The position numbers were made by a program, and so were the translations under genes. This document shows, piece by piece, positions 10,866-54,948 of a DNA stretch of 64,000 nt. The notes under the pieces are model-generated. The model was not told the origin of the DNA. It saw only the letters and a program-made list of their open reading frames with translations, and made no database searches. The stretch's first letter is position 1. Each line of letters starts with the position of its first letter. The stretch comes from an uncultured delta proteobacterium (GTDB lineage Bacteria; Desulfobacterota; Binatia; Binatales; Binataceae), in NCBI GenBank assembly GCA_963808235.1, contig CAWEEQ010000004.1, positions 2,296,243-2,360,242 of the forward strand. The letters run 5' to 3'.

Positions 10866-10901
10866 GAAGCCCTGCGGTACGCCGTGGGGCTTTTTATTTT
10901 T
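10866..10901 (+). terminator. Putative intrinsic terminator after rplU-rpmA
   Basis: GC-rich hairpin AGCCC...GGGCT followed by a TTTTTATTTTT tract. Confidence 0.4.
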
Positions 10902-10927
10902 GCCGAACCTGCTCAGGAGGAAATGCG

Positions 10928-11956
10928 ATGCGACTAGGCTTAATCACCGGTTATTCGGACGCGCGGATGGGCTTGCCGATGGACACGATTCTCGAAGCCG
11001 AAAAAGCCGGCTTCGACTCGGTCTGGACCGCCGAGGCTTACGGCTCCGACGCGATCACACCGCTCGCGTGGATCGGCGCGCTTACCAAAAAGATTCGCCT
11101 CGGCACCGGTATCATGCAGATGCCCGCGCGCACCCCGGCAGCCACTGCGATGACCGCGATGACGCTCGACGCGCTTTCCGGCGGACGCTTCATCCTCGGG
11201 ATCGGACCGTCGGGGCCGCAGGTCGTAGAAGGATGGCACGGCGTGTCGTACGGCAAACCGCTCCAGCGCACTCGCGAATATATTGAAATCGTGCGAACGA
11301 TCCTTGCGCGCGAAGTTCCGCTCGAGCATCACGGCAAGGAATTCGACATCCCGTACACCGGGCCGGGCGCCTCGGGCCTGGGCAAGCCGCTCAAGAGCAT
11401 CCTGCACGGGCGCAAGGACATGCCGATCTACACCGCATCGATCAGTCCCAAGGGAATCGCGTTGGCGGCGGAAATCGCCGACGGCGTGATCCCAGTTTGG
11501 ATGAATCCCGACCGGTGGGACATCTACGACGCGCCGGTTAAAGAAGGCTTCGCGAAAAGCGGCGGCCGCAAGAACATGGAGAATTTCGAAGTCGCGCCGT
11601 TCGTCACCTGCGTGATGGGCCCGGACCTCGAGAAATGCCGGATGCCGGTGAAGGGAATGATGGCGCTTTATATCGGCGGGATGGGCGCGCGCAACAAAAA
11701 TTTCTACAACGACTACGCCAAGCGTCTCGGCTACGAAAAAGAAGCGGTCCAGATCCAGGACCTGTTTCTTGCCGGCAAAAGGGCCGAGGCGATGGCGCTG
11801 GTGCCGGACAAGCTGGTCGACGAAGTCGCGCTGGTCGGGAACCGCGAGCGCATCGCGGATCGTCTGAAGGCGTGGAAAGACTCGCCGGTCAAAACGATGT
11901 TGATCGGCACCGGCGACGTCAACACAGTCCGCGCCCTGGCGGAGATTTGTCTGTAG
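10928..11956 (+). CDS. LLM-class (luciferase-like) flavin/F420-dependent oxidoreductase
   Basis: RBS GGAGG upstream. Motifs FDSVWTAEAYGSDA...GTGIMQMPARTP...GRFILGIGPSGPQVVEGWHGV are typical of F420-dependent LLM oxidoreductases. Confidence 0.8.
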   Translation: MRLGLITGYSDARMGLPMDTILEAEKAGFDSVWTAEAYGSDAITPLAWIGALTKKIRLGTGIMQMPARTPAATAMTAMTLDALSGGRFILGIGPSGPQVVEGWHGVSYGKPLQRTREYIEIVRTILAREVPLEHHGKEFDIPYTGPGASGLGKPLKSILHGRKDMPIYTASISPKGIALAAEIADGVIPVWMNPDRWDIYDAPVKEGFAKSGGRKNMENFEVAPFVTCVMGPDLEKCRMPVKGMMALYIGGMGARNKNFYNDYAKRLGYEKEAVQIQDLFLAGKRAEAMALVPDKLVDEVALVGNRERIADRLKAWKDSPVKTMLIGTGDVNTVRALAEICL

Positions 11957-14896: not shown

Positions 14897-16150
14897 ATGA
14901 CGCTCGAATCGGAAGTAATTGGCGCACTGACTCGCGCACGCGCGGCAGCGCCGCGGATGGCGCTGGCGACGACCGTCGAGAAAAACTCGGCGCTAAAAAA
15001 ACTCGCGGATGCGATTCGCGCGTCCGCGGCCGACGTGATCGCCGCAAATCAAAAAGATCTGAAGCGCGCCGCCGAGGACGGACGCACCGGCGCATTCGTC
15101 GAGCGCCTGACGCTCAGTCCCGCGCGGATCGAGGCGATGGCGCACAGCGTCGAGGAAGTCGCAGCGCTGCCCGACCCGGTTGGAGGCGTGATCGAGCGAT
15201 CGACGCGTCCCAATGGTCTCGAAATCTCCAAGGTGCGGGTGCCGCTCGGCGTGATCGCGATGATCTACGAATCGCGTCCGAACGTCACCATCGACGCAGG
15301 CGCGCTCTGCTTCAAGGCAGGTAACACGGCCGTGTTGCGCGGCGGCAAGGAAGCTCTCGAGACCAACGCTTATCTCGCGAATTTGATTGGCGCGGCGCTG
15401 AAGGAAAGCGGCCTCAATCCCGACGCAGTGACGTTCATTCGCAATGTGGATCGCGAAGTAATCCAGATAATGAAGCGCCAAGGCGAATTGATCGACTTGA
15501 TAATTCCGCGCGGCGGCCAGGCGTTGAAGGACGCGCTGAAGGGCTCGTCGGTCCCGATCCTGCCGCATTTCGACGGACTCTGTCACACCTACGTCGATCG
15601 CGCGGCGGATCTGAAGATGGCGCTGGAAATTTGCGTTAATGCGAAATGTTCGCGGCCGTCGGTCTGCAATTCGATGGAAAACTTGGCTGTGCATCGCGAG
15701 GTCGCGGAGAAGTTCCTGCCCGAGCTTGGCAAGCGGATGAAAGCGGCAGGCGTCGAGCTGCGCGGCGACGATCGCACGCGGAAAATCATTCCCGACGCAC
15801 GCCCCGCGACCGACGAGGATTGGGACACCGAGTACCTGGACATGATTCTCGCTGTGAAGGTTGTCGATTCGCTCGACGACGCGATCGCGTTTATCGAGCG
15901 CCACAGCTCGCATCTTGCCGACGCGATCGTCACCAGTGATCCGGAAGCTGCGCACCGCTTTGAACGCGAGGTCGATTCGGCTACCGTTTATGTGAACGCA
16001 TCGACGCGGTTCACCGACGGCTTTGAGTTCGGCTTCGGCGCCGAAACCGGAATCTCCACCAACCGCCTGCATGCGCGAGGCCCGATGGGGTTGAACGAGT
16101 TGACTACCTACAAGTACGTCATTTCCGGGAACGGACAGATCCGCGCCTGA
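14897..16150 (+). CDS. proA: Gamma-glutamyl phosphate reductase
   Basis: 417 aa with ALDH-fold motifs. Canonical position after proB. Confidence 0.95.
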   Translation: MTLESEVIGALTRARAAAPRMALATTVEKNSALKKLADAIRASAADVIAANQKDLKRAAEDGRTGAFVERLTLSPARIEAMAHSVEEVAALPDPVGGVIERSTRPNGLEISKVRVPLGVIAMIYESRPNVTIDAGALCFKAGNTAVLRGGKEALETNAYLANLIGAALKESGLNPDAVTFIRNVDREVIQIMKRQGELIDLIIPRGGQALKDALKGSSVPILPHFDGLCHTYVDRAADLKMALEICVNAKCSRPSVCNSMENLAVHREVAEKFLPELGKRMKAAGVELRGDDRTRKIIPDARPATDEDWDTEYLDMILAVKVVDSLDDAIAFIERHSSHLADAIVTSDPEAAHRFEREVDSATVYVNASTRFTDGFEFGFGAETGISTNRLHARGPMGLNELTTYKYVISGNGQIRA

Positions 16151-16192
16151 CAGGCGCGCGGGCACAAGTTAAAAGTTAAAAAGTCAAATCGT

Positions 16193-16831
16193 ATGCGGGT
16201 AGGATTGTTCGGCGGCAGTTTCAATCCGATCCACTTCGGTCATCTTCGCGCGGCCGAGGAAGATCGAGAGGCGCTCGGCCTCGACCTCGTTTATTTCATT
16301 CCGGCCGCATCGCCGCCGCACAAAGCAGCCGGCGATCTCGCCCCGGCGGAGCATCGGCTCGCGATGGTGCGTCTGGCGACCAAGGGCAACCGCCACTTCA
16401 TGGCGTCAGACGTCGAGATTCGGCGCTCGGGAAGCTCGTACACTATCGAGACGATTCGATACTTCCTGGCGACGCTGCGGCAACCCGCGTCGCTGTACCT
16501 GTTGATGGGTGCGGATCAGTTTGCGGAGCTCGCCACTTGGAAAGATCCCGAAGAGCTGGTGCGCCTCGCGAATATCGCGGTTCACACACGATTCATACAG
16601 GGAGAATCGGGGCACCCGCGAATTTCGGTTGCCGCGCTGAAACGGTTTGGCTACACTCGGGAAGACGATCATTACGTGCATGCGAGCGGAACCACGCTTT
16701 CATTTGTCGAAACTACTTTCTTTCCAATCTCGGCCACTGAAATACGCGGCAAGCTGCAGCGGAACGAATCGATCAGGTATCTCATGCCGGCCGACGTGTT
16801 CGATTACGTTCAGCGTCACTCTCTCTATTGA
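16193..16831 (+). CDS. nadD: Nicotinate-nucleotide adenylyltransferase
   Basis: MRVGLFGGSFNPIHFGHL (HxGH) and an ISATEIR motif. Confidence 0.9.
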   Translation: MRVGLFGGSFNPIHFGHLRAAEEDREALGLDLVYFIPAASPPHKAAGDLAPAEHRLAMVRLATKGNRHFMASDVEIRRSGSSYTIETIRYFLATLRQPASLYLLMGADQFAELATWKDPEELVRLANIAVHTRFIQGESGHPRISVAALKRFGYTREDDHYVHASGTTLSFVETTFFPISATEIRGKLQRNESIRYLMPADVFDYVQRHSLY

Positions 16832-16925
16832 GGATCACTCTGCTTAGGCTTCTCTCCCTCACCGGATCGAATCGCAACCCCGCGGCAACTGCCGCGCAAT
16901 TCTCTTCGCCCATAGGTACGGCTTA

Positions 16926-17315
16926 TTGAAAGCACTCGCGAAGGCATACGCCGCAGTCGAAGCGGCACTCGAAAAAAAAGCTTACGACCTGGTGGTGCTC
17001 GAGGCCGAGCATCTTAAACCCGTCGCCGACTACTTCCTGGTGGCGACCGGGCGATCCAACGTGCAGGTGCAGGCGATCGCGCGCGGGATCGAGGAGCGGA
17101 TGGGCAAGGCCGGGCAGCGGCCGCTCTCAGTCGAGGGGCTTCATCACGCGCATTGGGTCGTGCTCGACTACGATGACGTCGTGGTGCATCTTTTCTACGA
17201 GCCGGCACGTGAGTTCTATCGGCTCGAGCGGAATTGGATCGACGCGCGTGAAGTGAAATTGCCGGAGCCGTTTCGCTCGCAGGCAGAGGGATTGAGAATC
17301 CGCGCGCTCGGCTAG
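16926..17315 (+). CDS. rsfS: Ribosome silencing factor RsfS (Iojap)
   Basis: DLVVLEAEHLKPVADYFLVATGRSNVQVQAIA...VVLDYDDVVVHLF is the RsfS pattern. Start is a TTG. Confidence 0.9.
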   Translation: MKALAKAYAAVEAALEKKAYDLVVLEAEHLKPVADYFLVATGRSNVQVQAIARGIEERMGKAGQRPLSVEGLHHAHWVVLDYDDVVVHLFYEPAREFYRLERNWIDAREVKLPEPFRSQAEGLRIRALG

Positions 17316-17551
17316 ACGCTGCGGACGGCGTGAGCGATTGCGACCAGGATCACCGCCCCAACCGTAGCAACCACCAAGGCGCCAAGGGCGCCGTTGGGAC
17401 TGTGAATAGCAAGCTTCTCGAAGACCCATCTGCCGATGACGCCGCCGATCAGGCCGAGCACAAGATCGGCAATCAGCCCAAAGCCACGACCGCGCACCAC
17501 CTTGCCGGCGAGCCACCCGGCCAGAATTCCGATTACGATCGCGCCTAGCAT
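17312..17551 (-). CDS. GlsB/YeaQ/YmgE-family (transglycosylase-associated) membrane protein
   Basis: 79-aa Gly-rich double-TM protein MLGAIVIGILAGWLAGKVV...GLIGGVIGRWVF. Confidence 0.75.
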   Translation of the reverse strand: MLGAIVIGILAGWLAGKVVRGRGFGLIADLVLGLIGGVIGRWVFEKLAIHSPNGALGALVVATVGAVILVAIAHAVRSV

Positions 17552-17582: not shown

Positions 17583-17702
17583 CTACTTCTTTTGTTCCAT
17601 CGGGACGCCGCAGCATTTCAACTGACCGGTTCCGGCCTTGGTGACGATGACCTGTGAGGCGCAATTTCCGCAGATATAAACTTTGCCGAGCTGGTTAGCC
17701 AT
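17583..17702 (-). CDS. Desulforedoxin-like (Dx) small metal-binding protein, 39 aa, unannotated mini-ORF
   Basis: Minus-strand ATG at 17700-17702 gives MANQLGKVYICGNCASQVIVTKAGTGQLKCCGVPMEQKK. The CxxC...CC spacing aligns with D. gigas desulforedoxin ([13 protein letters not shown]...[10 protein letters not shown]). Confidence 0.55.
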   Translation of the reverse strand: MANQLGKVYICGNCASQVIVTKAGTGQLKCCGVPMEQKK

Positions 17703-17754: not shown

Positions 17755-18399
17755 TCACGCGCCTCTGAATAGTGGTTTGCGCTTTTCCAGGAAAGCGCGC
17801 ACGCCTTCGGCGCGGTCGGAAGTCGTTTGTAGCAGGGCGTATAGATCCTCCTCAAGTCTGATGCCCTGCTCCAACGTCATGTCGAAACCCTTCAGCACCG
17901 CGTCCTTGACCAGGCGGGTGGCAATTGGCGCGCGGCTCAAGATCGCCTCGGCGACGCGTCCACCCACTTGAGCCAGCTCGCCTCGACCTTTCGCGAGGTA
18001 GGTAACTAGACCGATGCGCATGGCCTCGTCGGCTCCCAGAGCCACTCCCGTGAGCATCATTCGCAGCGCATTGCCGGCGCCGGCAAGCCGCGGCAAGCGC
18101 TGAGTAGCGCCGAAATGCGGCATCGCGCCGCGCTTCAAATGAGTGATCGCGAATCGGGCGCTTGAGATTGCGACGCGAATATCGGCCGCCAGGGCGAGTT
18201 CCAGGCCTTCGTCGAACGCGTCGCCGTTGATGATTGCGACGGTGGGCTTGGAAAGCACGGCGAGCGACTCGACCAAGCGCGCATCCACGCCCGCGTCGAA
18301 GCCGACGCAAAAGGCGGCGCCGGCGCCGGTGATCGCGAGCACTCGCGCTTCGGGGTCGTCTTCGACTTGCTCGATCAGCTCGAGCATCCGCACTGCCAT
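17755..18399 (-). CDS. Enoyl-CoA hydratase/isomerase family protein (possibly N-terminally truncated or non-canonical start)
   Basis: Crotonase core VLAITGAGAAFCVGFD...GAMPHFGATQRLPRL. About 30 crotonase-like codons in frame upstream of the ATG lack any ATG/GTG/TTG. Confidence 0.65.
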   Translation of the reverse strand: MAVRMLELIEQVEDDPEARVLAITGAGAAFCVGFDAGVDARLVESLAVLSKPTVAIINGDAFDEGLELALAADIRVAISSARFAITHLKRGAMPHFGATQRLPRLAGAGNALRMMLTGVALGADEAMRIGLVTYLAKGRGELAQVGGRVAEAILSRAPIATRLVKDAVLKGFDMTLEQGIRLEEDLYALLQTTSDRAEGVRAFLEKRKPLFRGA

Positions 18400-18539: not shown

Positions 18540-20087
18540 TCAGATGCCTCCGGCCGGTGCGCGCAGATCCTTGCGCAGGATCTTGCCGAGCGGATTTTTA
18601 GGCAGCGCGTCGATGAATTCGATGCTCTCGGGGCGCTTGAAGCTGGCAAGGCGAGATCGACAGAATTCCGCGAGCTCGGGCTGGCTTAGCTTCTGCCCCT
18701 TGCGCGCGACGACGAACGCCTTAACGGTCTGCCCCCACTCGATCGAAGGCACGCCGATAACGGCGCATTCGTCGACCGCTGGATGACTCATCAGGACGGT
18801 CTCGATTTCCGCGGGCGCGATATTCTCACCGCCGCGGATGATCATGTCGTCCTTGCGTCCGGCGAAAAACACGTAGCCGTCGTCGTCAAGCCATCCGAGG
18901 TCGCCGGTCGCGCGCCATCCGTCGGGCAATCGCGCGTCGTCCTCGCGGCCTGCGTATCCCTTCATGATGCGCGGGGTGCGGATTATTATTTCGCCGACCT
19001 GCCCGTGGGGGAGAAACTTTCCATCTTCGTCCCGCACCTGGATCTCGACGTCGGGCAGGGGCTTGCCGATCGAATTGAGACGCTTCAGCTTGAGTTCGAT
19101 TTCCTTGGCCGTGCCTTCAAGGCGATGGTCATCGGGGCCGAGCACGGTCAGCGAGGACGTGGTTTCGGTCTGCCCGTACGCGTTCACGAAGCCGACCTTT
19201 TTCGGGAAGACTTCGATCGCGCGGCGAATCACCTGCACCGGCATCGCGGCGCCGCCGTAGGCAAGATTCGTAAGACTCGCGAAGTCGGTCTTCGCAAACG
19301 ATGGCTCGTCGATAATCTGCTTCATCATGGTGGGCACCACGAAAGCATGGGTGACGCGTTCGCGCTGGACGAGCTCGAGCCACGCCTTCGCGTCGAACTG
19401 CGGCATCACGATAACTTTGCGCCCCGTCCAGATGTTGGTCATGTACGCGGTGGTGCCGGCGATGTGGTAAAAAGGCACGCACACCAGCGCAACGCCGCGA
19501 TCGGTGCCGTCGGCCATCTCGACGTTGGCGGTCACGTAGGCCGCGAAATCGCGAAAGCGCAGCATCACGCCCTTGGGCAGCGAGGTGGTGCCGCTGGTGT
19601 ACATCAGGATCGAAATATCTTCGTCTTCGACTTCGGCCTCGGAATCGTCGGGCTCGGCCTTCGCGACGAGATCCGCGAGCCGCACCATCCCTTTCGCGCC
19701 GTTGCCCAGCGCGACGATCTTGTCGAGCTTGAGCCGCGGCTGAATCCTGGCGATCAGATCGAGATAGCGATCGCCGACAATCAGAACCTTCGCGTCGGCG
19801 GTGTTGATCATGTACTCGAGCTCGTTATCTTTCGCGCGATAGTTGAGCGGCAGGAAAGTCAGGCCAGCCTTGGCGGCGCCGTAGTAGCACTCGATGTAAA
19901 GATCGGAATTGGTGTCGAGCACCGCGATGACATCGCGCGGCTTGAGACCGAACTGTTTGAAGACGGTGCTCAGGCGCGCGACTCGATCGTTCAGCTCAGC
20001 ATAAGTGAGCCGCGCCGCGCCGAAGACCAGGATCTCCTGCTCGGGCACGATCGACGCAGGGATCGTTACGAAGTTAACCGTGTTCAC
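18540..20087 (-). CDS. AMP-dependent acyl-CoA synthetase/ligase
   Basis: Adenylation motifs YTSGTTSLPKGVML, YGQTETT, GWLDDDGYVFFAGRKDD and a C-terminal LPKNPLGKILRKDL. Confidence 0.85.
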   Translation of the reverse strand: MNTVNFVTIPASIVPEQEILVFGAARLTYAELNDRVARLSTVFKQFGLKPRDVIAVLDTNSDLYIECYYGAAKAGLTFLPLNYRAKDNELEYMINTADAKVLIVGDRYLDLIARIQPRLKLDKIVALGNGAKGMVRLADLVAKAEPDDSEAEVEDEDISILMYTSGTTSLPKGVMLRFRDFAAYVTANVEMADGTDRGVALVCVPFYHIAGTTAYMTNIWTGRKVIVMPQFDAKAWLELVQRERVTHAFVVPTMMKQIIDEPSFAKTDFASLTNLAYGGAAMPVQVIRRAIEVFPKKVGFVNAYGQTETTSSLTVLGPDDHRLEGTAKEIELKLKRLNSIGKPLPDVEIQVRDEDGKFLPHGQVGEIIIRTPRIMKGYAGREDDARLPDGWRATGDLGWLDDDGYVFFAGRKDDMIIRGGENIAPAEIETVLMSHPAVDECAVIGVPSIEWGQTVKAFVVARKGQKLSQPELAEFCRSRLASFKRPESIEFIDALPKNPLGKILRKDLRAPAGGI

Positions 20088-20879
20088 TTAGGCGAGATTC
20101 CTCCCGGACGCCGGCATTTTCCGAGGCCTGGCCCGGCGGCGATTGTCGCGCGAATTTATGTTCTCAAATCGTTTCGCGAGGCGCTGTTCGAGTTCGAGTC
20201 CCTCCCGCAGAGGCAGATCGAGCCCTTCCCACACCGCCAGCTTGAGCATCGCGGCCTGCTCACGGGCGACTCCGCCAAGCTCGCGTGCAATGGTGAGAGC
20301 GCGTGCATCCAACTCTGCCAAGGGAACCACTTCGGCGACCAAACCTACAAGTAACGCGTCTTGGGCGTCAATCCAACGGCCGGTGAGACAGAGATCTAGC
20401 GCGCGCCCGAGGCCGAGACGACGCGCGGCGGTCTGAGTGCCGGCGACTCCGGGAATCATCCCGGCGCCGGTTTCGGGCAAGGAAATTCGAGTGTCGTCAG
20501 CGGCTATCGCAACGTCGCACAGCAGCGCCATCTCGAGTCCTCCGCCGACTGTGTAGCCGTGGATTGCGGCGACGGTCGGTATCGGCAGCGCTCGCATCAT
20601 GCCCCAAACGTCGCGGCGAAAGCGCACCCATCGCGCAACGATCGGCGACGGCGCCATCCCGAATTCCGCGAGATCGCCGCCGGTCGAGAACGCTTTGCCG
20701 GCGCCGCGCAGTACCATCGCGCGGACCGTGGAGTCCTCGTGAACCGCGGCGAGGATTTGAAACAGCTCGTCGCGCATCGCCATGTTGTAGGCGTTGAACT
20801 GATCGGGGCGATTGAGCGTGACCCACGCTACCGCGCCGCGCTTGGCGTACAGCACCGCACTGGAACCGTTTGAAGACAT
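20088..20879 (-). CDS. Enoyl-CoA hydratase/isomerase (crotonase)
   Basis: VAWVTLNRPDQFNA...VLRGAGKAFSTGGDL...VAAIHGYTVGGGLEMAL. Confidence 0.85.
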   Translation of the reverse strand: MSSNGSSAVLYAKRGAVAWVTLNRPDQFNAYNMAMRDELFQILAAVHEDSTVRAMVLRGAGKAFSTGGDLAEFGMAPSPIVARWVRFRRDVWGMMRALPIPTVAAIHGYTVGGGLEMALLCDVAIAADDTRISLPETGAGMIPGVAGTQTAARRLGLGRALDLCLTGRWIDAQDALLVGLVAEVVPLAELDARALTIARELGGVAREQAAMLKLAVWEGLDLPLREGLELEQRLAKRFENINSRDNRRRARPRKMPASGRNLA

Positions 20880-22438
20880 CAGCCCGAATGCAAGTCTGCG
20901 CTGTCGCTGCTCGCGATAGCGGGACGGCCGCGCTCATAAACAACGCGCCCGCCGACGATAGTTATATCGACCGCGAGGTTCATCAGGTCGGCGGGCGGGA
21001 GCGAAAACGGGTCGCGCGGGAGAACGATCAGGTCGGCGACGCGGCCGGGTTCGATCGAGCCGGCGGCGACTTGCCCGAGATGCGCGGCGTCAGTCGTGAA
21101 GAGCGCGAACGCATCGGTGATCGAAAGCGCCTCGGCGGGCGCAAGCTCGAGGCCCTCGAGCGTGGTGCGTGATACCGCGGACGCAATCGCGGCAAGCGGC
21201 CTGGCAGGCGTAACCGGCGCGTCGGTAGCCCCCGCAAGATGCACTCCCGCGGCTTTGAGGCTTCGCGCGCGGTAGAGATGTGCGATCAGGCCGCCCTCTT
21301 CGGCGTACTTCGCGCCGCGAAAATGAATGAAGCCGGGATTGGTGACGACCCAGGAATTCATCGCGGCGAGCCGGTCGATATAGTTGGGCGGGATCAGTCC
21401 GCCATGCTCGATGCGAAACCGCGGAATCTCGTTTCGGCCGGCGTATCCTGCCTTTGCGGTTTCAATAGCGGCCAGCGCTTCTTCCAGTTCCTCGACCTCG
21501 GTCACATGAAATGCGCAATCGAGTCCGCGCGCCAGCGCGATTCCAACAGGACGCGAAAGGCCGGCGCGATCGTACTGATAGCCGGGCATGAACTTGACTC
21601 CGGCGAGCCTGATTCCCGCGGCGCCCGCGATCTGTTCGCATCGCTCGGCGGTTTCGAGATGCTGCCCGCCGATCATCACGCCAACGTGCTGGCAAATTGC
21701 GCCCGACTGCGAAAGCTTCGCGAACAGTTCGACCTCGAAGAGACCGTTGCGAGTGGTCGCGTCGGTGAAGTTCGTCACGCCGGCCGCGGCCAATTCCCGG
21801 CTCATGATTCGCGCGCGCGATTCGGACTCCGCCGCGGTCACGGGCGGAAGATGCTGCGAGAGCCAGGTTTCCATGCCGACAACCAGGCCGGTCAACTTTC
21901 CGGCCGCGTCGCGAACCATGTTGGCACCGACGGGCTGCATGAAATCAGGAGCCTCGAGACCGAGCAGCGCGATCGCGCGCGAGTTGAGCCACGTCGCGTG
22001 TAGCGTCTGATGTTTGAGTCGCAGCGGATTCTTCGGCACCGAATGATCGAGCTCGGCGCGCGTCAGCCCGCGCTTGTCGAGCATCAGCGCCTCATCGCAT
22101 CCGAACGCGCGCAGCCAGTTTCCCGGCGGAGTCTTGCCGGCGGCGATTCGCAAATCGGCAAGCACGTCGCCAACCGCGCGGCATCGCTGCACAGAAATTC
22201 CCGTCGCGGCCGCAGCCGCTTCCAGAAAATGCAGATGCGAATCGATGAAGCCCGGCGCAACGGCGCGGCCCCCGAGTTTCAGCAGATGAGTTTGCGGTCC
22301 GACCAGCGGTTTTATTTCCGCGAATCTGCCCTGCGCGATGATTTGTCCGGCCGCGATTGCAATCGAGTCGACCCCCGGATGCCCGAGGACAAGACCTTCG
22401 TGCACAACCAGGTCGGCTTTCCCGGGGGCGGCGTCCAC
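20879..22438 (-). CDS. Amidohydrolase-3 family metal-dependent hydrolase
   Basis: GFIDSHLHF metal-binding motif near the N-terminus. The 519-aa length fits a TIM-barrel amidohydrolase. Confidence 0.75.
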   Translation of the reverse strand: MDAAPGKADLVVHEGLVLGHPGVDSIAIAAGQIIAQGRFAEIKPLVGPQTHLLKLGGRAVAPGFIDSHLHFLEAAAAATGISVQRCRAVGDVLADLRIAAGKTPPGNWLRAFGCDEALMLDKRGLTRAELDHSVPKNPLRLKHQTLHATWLNSRAIALLGLEAPDFMQPVGANMVRDAAGKLTGLVVGMETWLSQHLPPVTAAESESRARIMSRELAAAGVTNFTDATTRNGLFEVELFAKLSQSGAICQHVGVMIGGQHLETAERCEQIAGAAGIRLAGVKFMPGYQYDRAGLSRPVGIALARGLDCAFHVTEVEELEEALAAIETAKAGYAGRNEIPRFRIEHGGLIPPNYIDRLAAMNSWVVTNPGFIHFRGAKYAEEGGLIAHLYRARSLKAAGVHLAGATDAPVTPARPLAAIASAVSRTTLEGLELAPAEALSITDAFALFTTDAAHLGQVAAGSIEPGRVADLIVLPRDPFSLPPADLMNLAVDITIVGGRVVYERGRPAIASSDSADLHSG

Positions 22439-22492
22439 GTCGAATCGTTCACCTTCACCGCCTGCGCCGATGCGCGGCAGCGTTTCGATTTC

Positions 22493-22636
22493 CTAGTCGG
22501 AAGACGGAAGCGGCTTCGCTTCCTTGATTTTCATTTCGTTATCGCAACACTGCAGACCGCCGGGGCCGGCCTTGTTGCAGAGCACTTCGGTGCCGCATTT
22601 TTCGCACATGTAACGCTTGCCGAGTACGTTTGCCAT
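22493..22636 (-). CDS. Desulforedoxin-like (Dx) small metal-binding protein, 47 aa, unannotated mini-ORF
   Basis: Minus-strand ATG at 22634-22636 gives MANVLGKRYMCEKCGTEVLCNKAGPGGLQCCDNEMKIKEAKPLPSSD. It is a paralog of the 17583-17702 ORF with the same CxxC...CC pattern. Confidence 0.55.
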   Translation of the reverse strand: MANVLGKRYMCEKCGTEVLCNKAGPGGLQCCDNEMKIKEAKPLPSSD

Positions 22637-22693
22637 CTGGTCCGCTCCTGAAATCAGGCGATAAGCGCCTTTTGAGTAACTTAAAGTATCACT

Positions 22694-23692
22694 TCAATCT
22701 TGGCTGAACGGCAAATCGGTCACGATCGCGCTGCCGTCCGCATCGACTTTCAATTCGGTTCCCGGCCGCCAGGCGCTGTGATGCAAAATTGCGAGTCCGA
22801 TCGCACCCAATCGCGGCGAGCGAGTCGCGCTGCTCACCCGCCCGACTTCCTTGCCTTCGAGACTCAAGCCCGCGCCAAGCCTCCGCGATTCTTTAAACTT
22901 GAGTCCGAACATCCGTTTTTTCAAGCCGCCGCGCGCAGTCGCCCGCTCGATAGTTTCCTGCCCGAGGTAGCATCCCTTGTTCAGCGAGATCGCGCGATCG
23001 AGCCGCGCCTCGAGCGCGATCGTTTTGTCGAAGGTGTCGACGCCGACGCGCGCGACTCCATTCTCGATTCGTATCGCTTCGAGCACTGCGGAATCGATTC
23101 TGCGCGAATTCGGTATCGAGGTCAGAAGTTTGCCGACAATCGTGTCTACCTGCGCGCGCGGGGCAATAATCGATGCTGCAGGCGCGCCGAAGCGCGGCAG
23201 GTTCGCGACTCGAAGATCGCCGGTGAGCACCGCGCGCCACGCGGCAAGCGAACCCGCATCGTCGCCACCCACGATGCGCGCCGCGTCATGCGCCTTTGGA
23301 CCTTCGACATCGATAACCGACAAGTCCGGGCCGTCTTCGAATTCGACATCATCGGCAACCAGCAGGCGCTCGAGATGCGCCCGCGCGCGCGCCCACGCGT
23401 CGGCGTCGATATCCAGAATGAGCGCGTCGTCGGTTACCCAGACGAACAAGTCGGCGATCACGTGCGCGTGCTCGGTCAGAAACAGCGCCGGCAGGACCGA
23501 ACCGGGCTTGGCGCCCTTGATATCCGCACTGGACGTGCCGTGAAAGAACGACACGCGATCGTCGCCGACCACGCGCACCACCGTTCGGCCGTCGAGTATG
23601 CGAACGCCCACCGCCTTGATGACCGCATCGTAATCAGCGTCGAAGGCGGCCGCAGCGGAGCCGCGCTCGGGTGTCATTTCAAGATGGCCCAT
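22694..23692 (-). CDS. ygfZ: YgfZ/CAF17-family folate-binding Fe-S maintenance protein (GcvT fold)
   Basis: Signature KGCYLGQE (LNKGCYLGQETIERA) within an aminomethyltransferase-like fold. Confidence 0.7.
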   Translation of the reverse strand: MGHLEMTPERGSAAAAFDADYDAVIKAVGVRILDGRTVVRVVGDDRVSFFHGTSSADIKGAKPGSVLPALFLTEHAHVIADLFVWVTDDALILDIDADAWARARAHLERLLVADDVEFEDGPDLSVIDVEGPKAHDAARIVGGDDAGSLAAWRAVLTGDLRVANLPRFGAPAASIIAPRAQVDTIVGKLLTSIPNSRRIDSAVLEAIRIENGVARVGVDTFDKTIALEARLDRAISLNKGCYLGQETIERATARGGLKKRMFGLKFKESRRLGAGLSLEGKEVGRVSSATRSPRLGAIGLAILHHSAWRPGTELKVDADGSAIVTDLPFSQD

Positions 23693-23810
23693 ATCAGGAT
23701 CACGATACTAGAAAGTGGCTGTCTTGCGTACCGCAATGCGCTCATATTCTCGGTTTCATTTACGTCGTACAATTTGAATATAATCATGCGTTCCCGAAGG
23801 AGCCAAAAAT

Positions 23811-23968: not shown

Positions 23969-25459
23969 GTGATCAGAGGGATCGCGCATCCAGGGCGCGG
24001 TAGTACGCACCGCCGCCGCTTCTTTGCTTCCGCAGCCGGGGCGCTGTTGGCATTTGTGCTCACCCTGGGAGCTGCGCCGCGTTGTTACGCAGACGATGCG
24101 AGCACGCAGGCCCTGCAGTTGAGCGATCACGCATTCGCGATGCTCAACGCGATAAACGCTTCCGCCGCCGCCGGCAAGCCTGGACCGATACTCGAACCCG
24201 CGGCAAGCCTGGCCGGCGACGCGCAGACGCTTTCGACCGCGCTCGGCGCGCACGACAACGCGGCGGCGAGCAGCGCGATGGCCGCGGTGCTTGGCGACCG
24301 CGACCGAATCGAAGCGGCTGCGAAGGTTGCGGGCGGAGGCTATCCGGAAGAGTGGACCAGCATAAGAGAAAAAATCGCGGCGCTCGAAAAGGCGGTGCCC
24401 GCTGCCAAAGGCTCGACTGCATCCGCGATGCACGCTCTGATACCGGCCGTCTCGGTCGCTCCGCCGGCGGGTGAGAAATTGCCTGCCGCGCCAACCGTCT
24501 CGATCGGGTCGCGGGTCTTCAAGGGCGATGCGGTTCGGGTCAGGGGATATTTGGAAGGCACCGATTTGAAGTCGGCCGGGATTTTCGATGCCGACCAGAA
24601 GAGCAAGGACATCGAGGTCGCATCGACGCCCGGCGAGCAGCGAATCAATTTCGACTTCACGATCCAGCAGCCGTCGCAGACGCAATCGATTCGCGTCGCT
24701 GACGCGTACGGACGCGAAGCAAGCGCGATGATCGCGCCAGACCCTGCGGGCGTCGGCGCCATGAAGGGCGACGAGGAATTGATCGAGGTCGAGCCGAGTG
24801 CCGGGTCTTCATCAGGCATGGCTAGTGCCGAGCCTGACGATCGGCTCGCGTCAGCAGGTCCCGCGGGGGGCAACAATACCGCGGAGATTCCGCGCAGCAC
24901 CGATGCGCTCTCGCCGTCCCGTCGTCATATTGACGAAAGCCGCAATCTCGAGCCGTTAACGAACGTGCAGATCAACGTGCTCGACGCCGAAGAACTCATG
25001 TCGGCTCCCGGGATGGTACAGGTAGTCGGGCAAATCGCCGGACCGGGCGTGCTCCGCGCGGGCGTGTACGTCAACGGCAAGCTCGCCAAACCGATTCCTG
25101 TCAGCGCCGGCGGCTACAGCTCCTTCGACGTGACGTTTCCGATGCCGCCTGGCAGCGACGCGCGAATTCGCGCCTACGGCAACGGCAACTCTTTCGTGGA
25201 AGCGTCGATCGATACCGTCAGCGGAGGCGCCGGGATAACGGAGTACCGCAATCCTCCGATGTACACTTATCCGGGGTCGCCATATTACGCGCCAAATCCG
25301 TACGCCTACGCCAATCCCTATGCACCCGGCTACAATCCTTACGCGCCAAATCCTTATGGATACGCGCCCGGCTACGGACCGCCACCCTACGGCACGCCTT
25401 ACTACGGCACCCCGCCACCCACCGCGAACAAGCCGTGGTACAGCAAGCTGTTCCATTGA
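23969..25459 (+). CDS. Secreted protein with C-terminal Tyr/Pro-rich NPYAP-type repeats
   Basis: GTG start. RRRFF signal (possibly Tat) plus a hydrophobic helix. C-terminal YAPNPYAYANPYAPGYNPYAPNPYGYAPGYGPPPYGTPYYGTPPP. Confidence 0.5.
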   Translation: MIRGIAHPGRGSTHRRRFFASAAGALLAFVLTLGAAPRCYADDASTQALQLSDHAFAMLNAINASAAAGKPGPILEPAASLAGDAQTLSTALGAHDNAAASSAMAAVLGDRDRIEAAAKVAGGGYPEEWTSIREKIAALEKAVPAAKGSTASAMHALIPAVSVAPPAGEKLPAAPTVSIGSRVFKGDAVRVRGYLEGTDLKSAGIFDADQKSKDIEVASTPGEQRINFDFTIQQPSQTQSIRVADAYGREASAMIAPDPAGVGAMKGDEELIEVEPSAGSSSGMASAEPDDRLASAGPAGGNNTAEIPRSTDALSPSRRHIDESRNLEPLTNVQINVLDAEELMSAPGMVQVVGQIAGPGVLRAGVYVNGKLAKPIPVSAGGYSSFDVTFPMPPGSDARIRAYGNGNSFVEASIDTVSGGAGITEYRNPPMYTYPGSPYYAPNPYAYANPYAPGYNPYAPNPYGYAPGYGPPPYGTPYYGTPPPTANKPWYSKLFH

Positions 25460-54240: not shown

Positions 54241-54948
54241 CTAGAAATTGCGCTGGCCGAAGAAGACGGCGTTGATGCCGCGTTTGGTCGCAGCGATCGC
54301 TTCCGGCGATTTCGCCGCCATCGATTTAGCCAGTTCCCGCGCGGCCGGCATCAACTCGGCGGGCTTCACGACTCGATTCAGCAGGCCCATCGCGAGCAGC
54401 TCCTCAGCCTTGTAGTGGCTGCATCCGAGGATAGCTTCCTTGGCGCGCCATGGACCGAGCCTCGCGGCGAGCACGTTGGCCGGCGCGCCGCGAAACGGCA
54501 CCTCGAGATCGACTTCCGGCACCCAGAACTCAGCGCCCTCGACCGCGATTGCAAAATCGAGCGCGAGTGCGAATGACCATCCGCCGCCGACTGCGGCGCC
54601 GTTGATCGCGCCGATCGTTACCTGGTCGAGATGCGCCAGCACGTCGAATGCGCGTCCGATCAGCCGGGGCAATCTTTTTGCGAAGTCGCTCGCGCGTCGG
54701 CGCTGCTCGCCAGGATCGGTCGGGGAGCCGGCGTCATCCCTGAATAGGGCTGTGTCGGCGCCGGCGCAAAATGCGGCGCCCTGCCCGGTCACGATCAAGA
54801 CGCGGCAGTCGCGATCATCTCGGACTTCCTGAAGATGGCGCTCGAATTCGAGGATCACTTCCTGGTTCAAACAGTTGCGGCGCTCGGGGCGGCTGAAGGT
54901 CAGCGTGGTGATCGGACCTTCTTTCTCGACGAGGAAGTTTGATGGCAT
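54241..54948 (-). CDS. Enoyl-CoA hydratase/isomerase (crotonase)
   Basis: ITTLTFSRPERRNCL...VLIVTGQGAAFCAGAD. Confidence 0.85.
   Translation of the reverse strand: MPSNFLVEKEGPITTLTFSRPERRNCLNQEVILEFERHLQEVRDDRDCRVLIVTGQGAAFCAGADTALFRDDAGSPTDPGEQRRRASDFAKRLPRLIGRAFDVLAHLDQVTIGAINGAAVGGGWSFALALDFAIAVEGAEFWVPEVDLEVPFRGAPANVLAARLGPWRAKEAILGCSHYKAEELLAMGLLNRVVKPAELMPAARELAKSMAAKSPEAIAATKRGINAVFFGQRNF

Follow-up and report, generated by a model that had tools for sequence, protein, structure and literature searches.

A tailed desulforedoxin-like mini-protein gene beside ygfZ in Binataceae and its recurrent linkage to CoA-thioester enzyme genes in other bacteria

Background

What is the task of a protein of only 47 amino acids whose gene lies between ygfZ and an amidohydrolase gene? 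This question is raised by a stretch of 64,000 nucleotides from an uncultured delta proteobacterium of the family Binataceae (contig CAWEEQ010000004.1 of the GenBank assembly GCA_963808235.1), which is called the window in the following. The mini-protein is designated DxT here, for tailed desulforedoxin-like (Dx-like) protein. An initial annotation, made from the letters of the window alone, had regarded its open reading frame (ORF) as the second of two Dx-like mini-ORFs and had supposed that the product might be a metal or electron donor for YgfZ in the repair of Fe-S clusters.

The comparison with related loci led us to another reading. DxT might be a metal-stabilised accessory or adaptor mini-protein of an enzyme module and at the same time the tailed half of a two-part Dx system; we hold this view tentatively, with a probability of roughly 45%. 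The linkage to a coenzyme A (CoA) thioester module and a YtcJ-type amidohydrolase recurs in at least six phylum-level groups, and the linkage to YgfZ is confined to Binatia-type lineages.

Results

Conservation of the mini-ORF

The translation of DxT reads MANVLGKRYMCEKCGTEVLCNKAGPGGLQCCDNEMKIKEAKPLPSSD. Position (22493-22636) and length of the ORF had been given exactly by the initial annotation, and the strand, which it had left unstated, can now be assigned as minus. A first protein search with DxT returned 127 clusters with at least 68% identity, nearly all of them labelled Candidatus Binataceae, and the signature peptide CGTEVLC[NT]K is present in 320 species-representative genomes.

Among 84 distinct orthologous DNA sequences, the mean entropies of the codon positions 1, 2 and 3 amount to 0.31, 0.18 and 1.03, and 72% of the codon differences are synonymous. 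The ORF has a fixed length, namely 144 nt in all 80 Binataceae-type loci (a sample of 80 species loci, of which the evaluable number varies by neighbour) and 141 nt in the six loci L001-L006. Of 86 related loci, 84 have a Shine-Dalgarno (SD)-like motif ahead of the start. The median identity to the window in the Binataceae-type loci is 89% for DxT, compared to 64% for YgfZ and 68% for the amidohydrolase. Judged by its substitution pattern, DxT is a real gene under strong purifying selection.

The alternative, a chance ORF or a mis-called gene within a GC-rich intergenic region, might be suggested by the very small size of DxT and by the longer ORF of 213 codons that overlaps it on the opposite strand. 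Its probability is practically nil, since the codon-position pattern, the share of synonymous differences, the conserved SD motif and the constant length all contradict it, as do the antisense frames: two of the three are broken by stops in 81 of the 84 sequences, and the third, which holds the 213-aa ORF, has stops in 27 of 84 with just 6% synonymous codon differences. With 320 species genomes and 2403 clusters family-wide, the comparative data already refute this explanation. The argument that two paralogs in one window speak against chance is confirmed as well, as DxT and the ORF at 17583..17702 are both real and related. Furthermore, all five Cys residues of DxT, whose loss in relatives had been named as a possible refutation, are invariant in 47 sequences of the clade.

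Two other elements overlap the gene. The 213-aa ORF itself (22010..22651, plus strand) is antisense to DxT and to the start of the amidohydrolase gene, and because of the 6% synonymous change over DxT and the stops in 27 of 84 relatives we consider it a shadow ORF of a GC-rich region. A perfect 7-bp palindrome (GGAAGCG-aagc-CGCTTCC, 22506..22523) lies within the codons for the tail residues KEAKPLP. It had been flagged as terminator-like on the plus strand, a candidate that we rejected: only 33 of 80 orthologous loci preserve a perfect stem of 6 bp or more, and the palindrome is therefore probably an incidental by-product of conserved codons.

Likeness to desulforedoxin

The Dx of D. gigas is a homodimer of tail-less 36-aa chains that contains two Fe(Cys)4 centres. 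Its residues C9, C12, C28 and C29 align with C11, C14, C30 and C31 of DxT, in the common spacing C-x2-C-x15-C-C. The two proteins (PDB entries of D. gigas Dx: 1dxg/1dcd) are also alike in the start G-x-x-Y-x-C and in their tiny size, and 1dxg is the top fold match of DxT. In contrast to D. gigas Dx, DxT has 47 aa, an additional Cys20 and a conserved tail of 11 residues ending in Asp (C-terminal sequence KEAKPLPSSD); it possesses a distinct tail-less partner gene, and many of its relatives lack the ligands.

With the Pfam model PF06397, DxT reaches 20.5 bits (E = 3.7e-4) and stays just under the cut-off of 23, whereas the paralog at 17583..17702 passes it with 31 bits. Both remain below the cut-off of TIGR00319 (36.05; DxT 14.7 bits). 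Many DxT orthologues have a precomputed PF06397 match, and the best PDB sequence matches of DxT are desulfoferrodoxin (Dfx) N-domains and Dx. The AF2 model of DxT consists of four short strands with a predicted local distance difference test score (pLDDT) of 77.5; the pLDDT of 61 for the tail block is consistent with a flexible arm. The top PDB fold match of this model, 1dxg, has a probability of 0.93, a target-normalised TM score of 0.62 and a root-mean-square deviation of 2.3 A over 36 columns. The six best fold matches are all Dx or Dfx N-domains (1dxg, followed by five Dfx), with E-values of at least 0.24 that are not significant for so short a chain.

The Dx-like nature claimed for the mini-ORF is thus borne out by the Cys spacing in register with D. 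gigas Dx and by the nearest sequences and folds in the PDB. Going by its sequence, DxT may be called largely Dx-like, though it is no plain Dx.

Members of the family are currently named 'desulfoferrodoxin-like iron-binding protein', 'Desulfoferrodoxin, N-terminal domain' or 'hypothetical protein' in databases. The N-domain of desulfoferrodoxin/2Fe-SOR (PF06397; 1dfx, 2ji1) is the source of these pipeline names and supplies the best PDB sequence matches. However, DxT stops at residue 47 without the SOR catalytic domain and scores 22.8 bits with TIGR00320 (cut-off 146.9), and no SOR gene was seen in any neighbourhood that we read. Readings as a rubredoxin or an FmdB-type Zn-ribbon were rejected as well: compared with the generally known motifs of these proteins, DxT lacks a CPxCG second knuckle and a second CxxC 17 residues past the first.

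A family defined by its tail

A profile search over 1.84 billion representatives yielded 1164 clusters at E ≤1e-3 and 193 at E ≤1e-10. A second profile search gave 2403 tailed-family clusters at 90% identity, the 1164 of the first search being clusters at 50% identity. Chloroflexota, Dehalococcoidia, Syntrophales, Acidobacteriota and WOR-3 are among the labels of the 2403 clusters.

The alignment of the 146 best representatives to the family profile resulted in a hallmark that consists of the start L-G-K-R-Y, the core E-x-L-C-[TN]-K-x-G-x-G, M35 and the C-terminus [KR]-x-[LIV]-P-[SA]-[SA]-D. DxT of the window exhibits it with LGKRY, EVLCNKAGPG and KPLPSSD-COOH. Asp47 is present in all 119 representatives that reach this column, 118 of the 146 proteins end in D, and the tail positions P44 and [KR]41 are near-invariant. 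All four Cys ligands are found in only about 88 of the 146; 23 have His in place of the fourth Cys, and about 18 lack the CxxC, with Asp at position 11. The extra Cys20 of the window is shared by 97 representatives. Since the terminal Asp is kept in 119 of 119 proteins and the Cys4 site in only about 88 of 146, it is the tail and not the metal site that defines the family.

Some members combine the tailed module with other domains. In P0344 (234 aa) it is fused to an N-terminal ISC-type [2Fe-2S] ferredoxin domain, and in P0271, P0291, P0300 and similar proteins (about 105-118 aa) an unassigned helical N-terminal domain of about 65 aa replaces the tail-less Dx. The P0097 cluster (a 46-aa Dx) lists two Clostridia entries of 520 aa named 'spore germination protein', which is probably a clustering artefact.

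The Dx-like domain itself is known and already appears in automatic names. The tailed subfamily, its obligate tail-less partner, the Cys-less fusions and the linkage to CoA and amidohydrolase genes are apparently new: in the searchable literature we found nothing on the tailed subfamily and nothing that links Dx-like proteins to operons of CoA-ligases, CoA-transferases or crotonases, and a comparison of the fused proteins with Pfam and NCBIfam revealed no model.

The tail-less partner

The paralog of the window, termed Dx39 after its 39 residues (MANQLGKVYICGNCASQVIVTKAGTGQLKCCGVPMEQKK), shares 49% identity with DxT (BLASTP E = 4e-12), and tblastn detected no third Dx copy in the 64 kb. Dx39 lies 4.8 kb from DxT at the opposite end of an enzyme block, neither immediately upstream of it nor fused to it, and such a downstream Dx39 gene exists in 56 of 61 evaluable Binataceae-type loci. 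Binataceae-type genomes are unusual in this respect, as the Dx pair is pulled apart to both ends of the enzyme block. In 73 of 75 evaluable metagenome loci, a tail-less 39-aa Dx gene is located at most 400 nt upstream of the tailed gene on the same strand (median gap 30 nt), and adjacent pairs of this kind occur also in contigs from Dehalococcoidia, Syntrophales and Deltaproteobacteria.

Both halves can also be part of one protein. Two Dx-like stretches are present in 55 of the 146 representatives, and the C-terminal stretch favours the Dx47 over the Dx39 profile in all 55. The N-terminal stretch scores higher with the hidden Markov model (HMM) of Dx39 than with that of Dx47 in only 21 of these 55 tandem proteins. 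We therefore dropped the description of the N-terminal halves as specifically Dx39-like, and the Rosetta-stone argument rests on the architecture (a tail-less plus a tailed domain) and on the adjacency, not on subfamily assignment. Megaplasmids of Rhodococcus (DK17, opacus, erythropolis and others), Streptomyces, Mycobacterium branderi, Sphingobium and Sphingomonas encode genuine fusions of about 100 aa that are annotated as 'hypothetical protein'; examples are WP_016881672 of Rhodococcus sp. DK17, WP_037476724 of Sphingobium sp. RAC03 and WP_083130646 of M. branderi. Most of these plasmid fusions are nearly free of Cys (0-1 Cys in the tailed domain of five out of six), yet the tail KPLP[SA]SD is kept. 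Some short 'fusions' from metagenomes (for instance P0346, from one contig) look like assembly or frameshift artefacts and were set aside; the RefSeq plasmid fusions are genuine. Because D. gigas Dx is a homodimer and the two halves are adjacent or fused elsewhere, Dx39 and DxT most likely form a heterodimer, as far as sequence and gene order can tell.

Genomic context outside Binatia

The metagenome loci are the best 80 matches to one consensus-like query (from an alignment of eight sequences) and represent few operon types; as a sample, these loci are not phylogenetically independent. Gene families in their surroundings were assigned by tblastn with a handful of queries (E <1e-6, coverage at least 35%), by which divergent neighbours are missed. 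Of 62 evaluable loci, 38 have genes of the CoA module at a distance of up to 4 kb. Counted per gene, CoA-transferase III was found in 24 of these 62 loci, class I adenylate-forming enzymes (ANL; acyl-CoA ligases) in 15, CoA-transferase I in 15, proteins of the crotonase/enoyl-CoA hydratase family (ECH) in 14, and Amidohydro_3, the family of the YtcJ-type hydrolases, in ten. A recurring order is ECH, ECH, either ANL or CoA-transferase I A/B, Dx, DxT and two CoA-transferase III genes, followed by Amidohydro_3 on the opposite strand.

Similar arrangements exist in contigs of other lineages. A contig from Dehalococcoidia carries Dx and DxT followed by a convergent Amidohydro_3 gene; the order in a Syntrophales contig is ECH, ECH, ANL, Dx, DxT, CoA-transferase III, and in a deltaproteobacterial contig thiolase/DUF35, carboxyltransferase, SCS-like ligase, Dx, DxT. 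In another contig, two ECH genes and both subunits (A and B) of a CoA-transferase I precede DxT. Contigs of the Entotheonellia type show the order SLT/LysM, an 81-aa coiled-coil-like ORF, DxT, a 519-aa Amidohydro_3 and Metallophos, without YgfZ. The 81-aa ORF (L087 4133..4378; also in L088-L091) has no Pfam match and lies 17 nt upstream of the tailed gene, in the usual place of the tail-less Dx.

In five of six plasmid loci, a gap of 3-60 nt separates the fused gene from a neighbour that encodes a class I adenylate-forming enzyme (about 500 aa). Three of the six have CaiB/BaiF CoA-transferases and crotonases alongside, and thiolase and OB-fold (DUF35-type) genes are likewise present in three of six. 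The ANL proteins beside the fused proteins (five plasmids, two phyla) share 48-57% identity among themselves and 36-41% with the ANL of the window (E = 1e-103 to 1e-127), whereas an unlinked ANL of the DK17 locus shares just 27-32% with these plasmid enzymes and with the window ANL. Hence, the AMP-binding gene of the window belongs to a ligase subfamily that travels with the tailed protein.

YgfZ, BolA and glutaredoxin (Grx) genes were near none of the family members in the 62 metagenome loci, and none were near members in the contigs of the Entotheonellia type, of Dehalococcoidia, Syntrophales and Deltaproteobacteria or in the six annotated plasmids.

A second context, without CoA genes, consists of housekeeping genes (L172 225..12032 and 16 similar loci, among them L112, L117, L120, L143, L160, L184, L185 and L191). 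Here, carA, carB, pyrK and a UPF0047 (YjbQ-like) gene are followed by Dx and DxT, and beyond DxT by a convergent folE, a flavin reductase, a pyridoxal phosphate (PLP) enzyme, hom and a SurA-like gene.

The locus in Binatia and the role of YgfZ

The features of the locus in the window are compiled in Table 1.

Table 1. Positions of the two Dx-like genes and of the associated genes and signals in the window
Feature	Position	Strand	Basis or remark
Tailed Dx-like mini-protein gene (DxT, 47 aa)	22493..22636	minus	ORF, translation, coding selection, conserved SD
Shine-Dalgarno motif AGGAG	22645..22649	minus	8 nt before the ATG of DxT
Tail-less Dx paralog (Dx39, 39 aa), probable partner half	17583..17702	minus	PF06397 31 bits, pairing, fusions
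YgfZ/CAF17-type folate-binding GcvT-fold gene	22694..23692	minus	TIGR03317, KGCYLGQE; probably first gene of the transcription unit
519-aa Amidohydro_3 (YtcJ-type metal-dependent hydrolase)	20879..22438	minus	Pfam; immediately downstream of DxT
Crotonase/enoyl-CoA hydratase family gene (ECH a)	20088..20879	minus	ORF, synteny
Class I adenylate-forming enzyme (ANL, acyl-CoA ligase, 515 aa)	18540..20087	minus	Subfamily identity, synteny
Second crotonase family gene (ECH b)	17755..18399	minus	Pfam, synteny
Sigma-70-like promoter match	23777..23806	minus	Upstream of ygfZ; weak consensus match

DxT begins 57 nt downstream of ygfZ and ends 54 nt upstream of the amidohydrolase gene. Its placement between these genes, directly downstream of YgfZ, had been described correctly: the product of the neighbouring gene passes the cut-off of TIGR03317 (75 bits versus 49), contains the motif KGCYLGQE and has the GcvT fold. 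The closest solved relatives of the window ANL are feruloyl- and fatty-acyl-CoA synthetases, and the true start of ECH b may lie further upstream, since its relatives have about 253 aa. The only PDB relatives of the window amidohydrolase are two uncharacterised structural-genomics entries (3igh, 3icj). The window, L002 and the Entotheonellia-type locus encode amidohydrolases of the same length (519 aa) with 36-43% identity. Neither a CoA-transferase I or III gene nor an SCS-like ligase gene was found in the window. For a rough comparison, one ECH match (54274..54939) and no other module gene are present in the 58 kb of the window that lie outside the block.

This arrangement is well conserved. 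In the Binataceae-type loci, YgfZ is directly upstream of DxT in 75 of 77 (median gap 71 nt), so that the absence of a conserved ORF beside ygfZ in relatives, which would have spoken against the gene, is not what we found. The amidohydrolase is directly downstream in 71 of 72 (median gap 59 nt), and ECH, ANL, ECH and Dx39 come next in most of the loci. The full order from YgfZ and Dx to the second Dx is kept even in L001-L006, a lineage labelled 'Desulfurellaceae bacterium' (5-Mb circular genome), whose YgfZ shares only 35% identity. In these loci, the second Dx is directly followed by BolA and a CGFS glutaredoxin (about 10884..11872; in L002 10884..11000, 11209..11523 and 11549..11872). The enzyme block of L001-L006 thus lies between Fe-S trafficking genes, with BolA and the glutaredoxin at one end and YgfZ at the other, and YgfZ is itself preceded by flavin reductase and Rieske genes. 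With the L002 proteins as queries, tblastn found neither BolA nor Grx in the 64 kb of the window, and therefore this Fe-S gene flank is absent here.

The sigma-70-like match upstream of ygfZ is the sole one on the minus strand between 17000 and 24200; as one was found and 1.4 are expected by chance, it is only suggestive. A weak consensus scan detected no terminator-like site on the minus strand between ygfZ, DxT and the amidohydrolase gene.

It could be argued from this locus that DxT, at least in Binatia, acts as an Fe(Cys)4 iron or electron donor together with YgfZ (and BolA/Grx) in the assembly or repair of Fe-S clusters. The adjacency to a genuine YgfZ is tight and old within the class, and it persists in L001-L006, where BolA and CGFS monothiol glutaredoxin, both Fe-S trafficking factors, join the second Dx. 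The invariance of all Cys residues in the Binataceae-type clade, the sole promoter-like site upstream of ygfZ and the lack of a terminator between the genes fit this idea as well. However, YgfZ, BolA and Grx are missing near the members from all other lineages named above, BolA and Grx are not in the window either, and many members without metal ligands still keep the tail. Our literature search found no paper linking Dx to YgfZ. Moreover, the midpoint potential of Dx, near -35 mV, is high for reductive coupling of [2Fe-2S] clusters. A co-occurrence of DxT with ygfZ across genomes, as the initial annotation had envisaged, was hence seen in the Binataceae-type loci and one related lineage but not elsewhere. 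The donor idea retains the tight ygfZ link and the invariant Cys residues within Binatia and fails as a general link, with Cys4 sites kept in only about 88 of 146 representatives. An iron or electron donor role of DxT in YgfZ-dependent Fe-S repair is, from the sequences, possible in Binatia, though unlikely and not the best-supported reading, and the ygfZ link, seen in one bacterial class only, should therefore not be generalised in Fe-S biology. The YgfZ adjacency is rather an operon arrangement specific to Binatia-type genomes.

Further genes adjoin the block in the window. Here, as in most Binataceae-type loci, the gene after Dx39 encodes a small membrane protein of the Transgly_assoc family (GlsB-type; 17312..17551, minus strand). 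A proA-like gene, nadD and rsfS (14897..17315, plus strand) are convergent with the end of the block. On the other side, a plus-strand ORF of 496 aa (23969..25459) has a signal-like N-terminus and Pro/Tyr/Gly-rich short repeats at the C-terminus (NPYAPGYNPYAPNPYGYAPGYGPPPYGTPYYGTPPP).

Discussion

The reading that we favour, DxT as an accessory or adaptor mini-protein, can be outlined as follows. DxT, which ends in the flexible, family-defining tail K-P-L-P-S-S-D-COOH, would fold as a desulforedoxin, most likely bind one metal ion (Fe or Zn) via Cys11, Cys14, Cys30 and Cys31, and pair with the tail-less Dx39 as a heterodimer. In this form it might serve as a small subunit of the module of YtcJ-type amidohydrolase, ANL acyl-CoA ligase and two crotonases, with metal knuckles that may stabilise the fold and a C-terminal tail that may dock into a partner enzyme, presumably one of this module. 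A structural role of the metal site is more plausible than a catalytic one, because the Cys-poor versions keep both the tail and the linkage to the ligase.

There is precedent for small accessory proteins of this kind. DUF35/ChsH2-type proteins partner thiolase complexes and MbtH-like proteins partner adenylation domains, in both cases with a structural or scaffolding and not a catalytic role. The DUF35/ChsH2-type Zn-ribbon-OB proteins and the MbtH-like proteins resemble DxT in being small and in being encoded beside CoA-thioester or adenylate-forming enzymes, but their folds and motifs are unrelated, and neither has the P-S-S-D tail or the two-half Dx architecture. DUF35-thiolase pairs occur in the same clusters as the tailed or fused genes on three plasmids and one deltaproteobacterial contig.

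Several observations weigh against an accessory role in a CoA module. No CoA-module genes were detected in 24 of the 62 metagenome loci, of which 17 share the folE neighbour of the one housekeeping context, and four further sampled members stand alone in housekeeping contexts; such lone members indicate that the system is not exclusive to CoA operons. The neighbouring enzymes vary (ANL, SCS-like ligase, CoA-transferases I and III, amidohydrolase), which argues against DxT as a fixed subunit of any one of them. Within Binatia, the link to YgfZ is very tight. Finally, DxT and Dx39 of the window both keep intact Cys4 sites, so that a redox role is possible.

Such a redox role would be that of a general-purpose heterodimeric electron carrier of the Dx type, whose tail is a docking peptide for lineage-specific redox partners. 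The Cys4 sites are intact in most single-domain members, and potential partners are at hand in several places: PyrK, an Fe-S/FAD electron-transfer subunit, and a flavin reductase in the housekeeping context, ferredoxin genes in three of the six plasmid loci (0.04-8 kb away from the fused gene), the Rieske and flavin reductase genes of L001-L006, and the ferredoxin domain fused to the tailed module in P0344. However, a redox metal cannot be bound by the Cys-poor fusions (0-1 Cys in the tailed domain of five of the six plasmid proteins), which nevertheless retain the tail and the linkage to ANL, and the commonest neighbours (ANL, CoA-transferases, crotonases, amidohydrolase) are not redox enzymes. 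We consider an electron carrier unlikely for these reasons.

The tail also invites a comparison with the amino-group carriers LysW and ArgW. Like these (PDB 5eio chain C), DxT combines a small metal-knuckle domain with a flexible, conserved tail and an invariant terminal acidic residue, and a ligase and a hydrolase are encoded beside it, which are in fact the most persistent neighbours. By analogy, DxT could be a covalent carrier: the co-occurring ligase or transferase would attach a substrate to its C-terminal Asp, and the YtcJ-type amidohydrolase would remove it again. LysW even appears among the weak fold matches of the DxT model (rank 15, probability 0.13), but this match is not significant; DxT has no sequence similarity to LysW, its tail KPLPSSD lacks the EDWGE motif, and the block contains no gene for an ATP-grasp ligase of the LysX type. 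Some contexts are without both ligase and hydrolase, crotonases and CoA-transferases act on CoA thioesters and not on protein-bound substrates, and we know of no ANL enzyme that loads protein C-termini. A covalent carrier appears improbable in view of these differences. Its most specific form, a protein 'arm' whose terminal Asp receives its load from the co-evolving ANL ligase or a CoA-transferase, with release by the YtcJ-type amidohydrolase, is a speculation by analogy to which we give very little weight. If it were true, the logic of LysW-like carriers would extend to CoA-dependent catabolism across many phyla, including the cultivable genera Rhodococcus, Mycobacterium and Sphingobium.

Conclusions

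Very small protein genes are often missed or left 'hypothetical', and DxT is one that marks a very widespread family, whose Binataceae-type form by itself is present in 320 species genomes. The family presents a two-half module derived from desulforedoxin, in which the invariant C-terminal tail outlasts the metal site in evolution. The repeated placement in operons suggests that DxT and its relatives may be a missing accessory component of a common, undescribed CoA-dependent pathway, a pathway that would involve the YtcJ-like amidohydrolases, a class of known structure and unassigned function. Since the fused version occurs in the tractable genera Rhodococcus, Mycobacterium, Streptomyces and Sphingobium, the function of the tailed proteins is directly testable.

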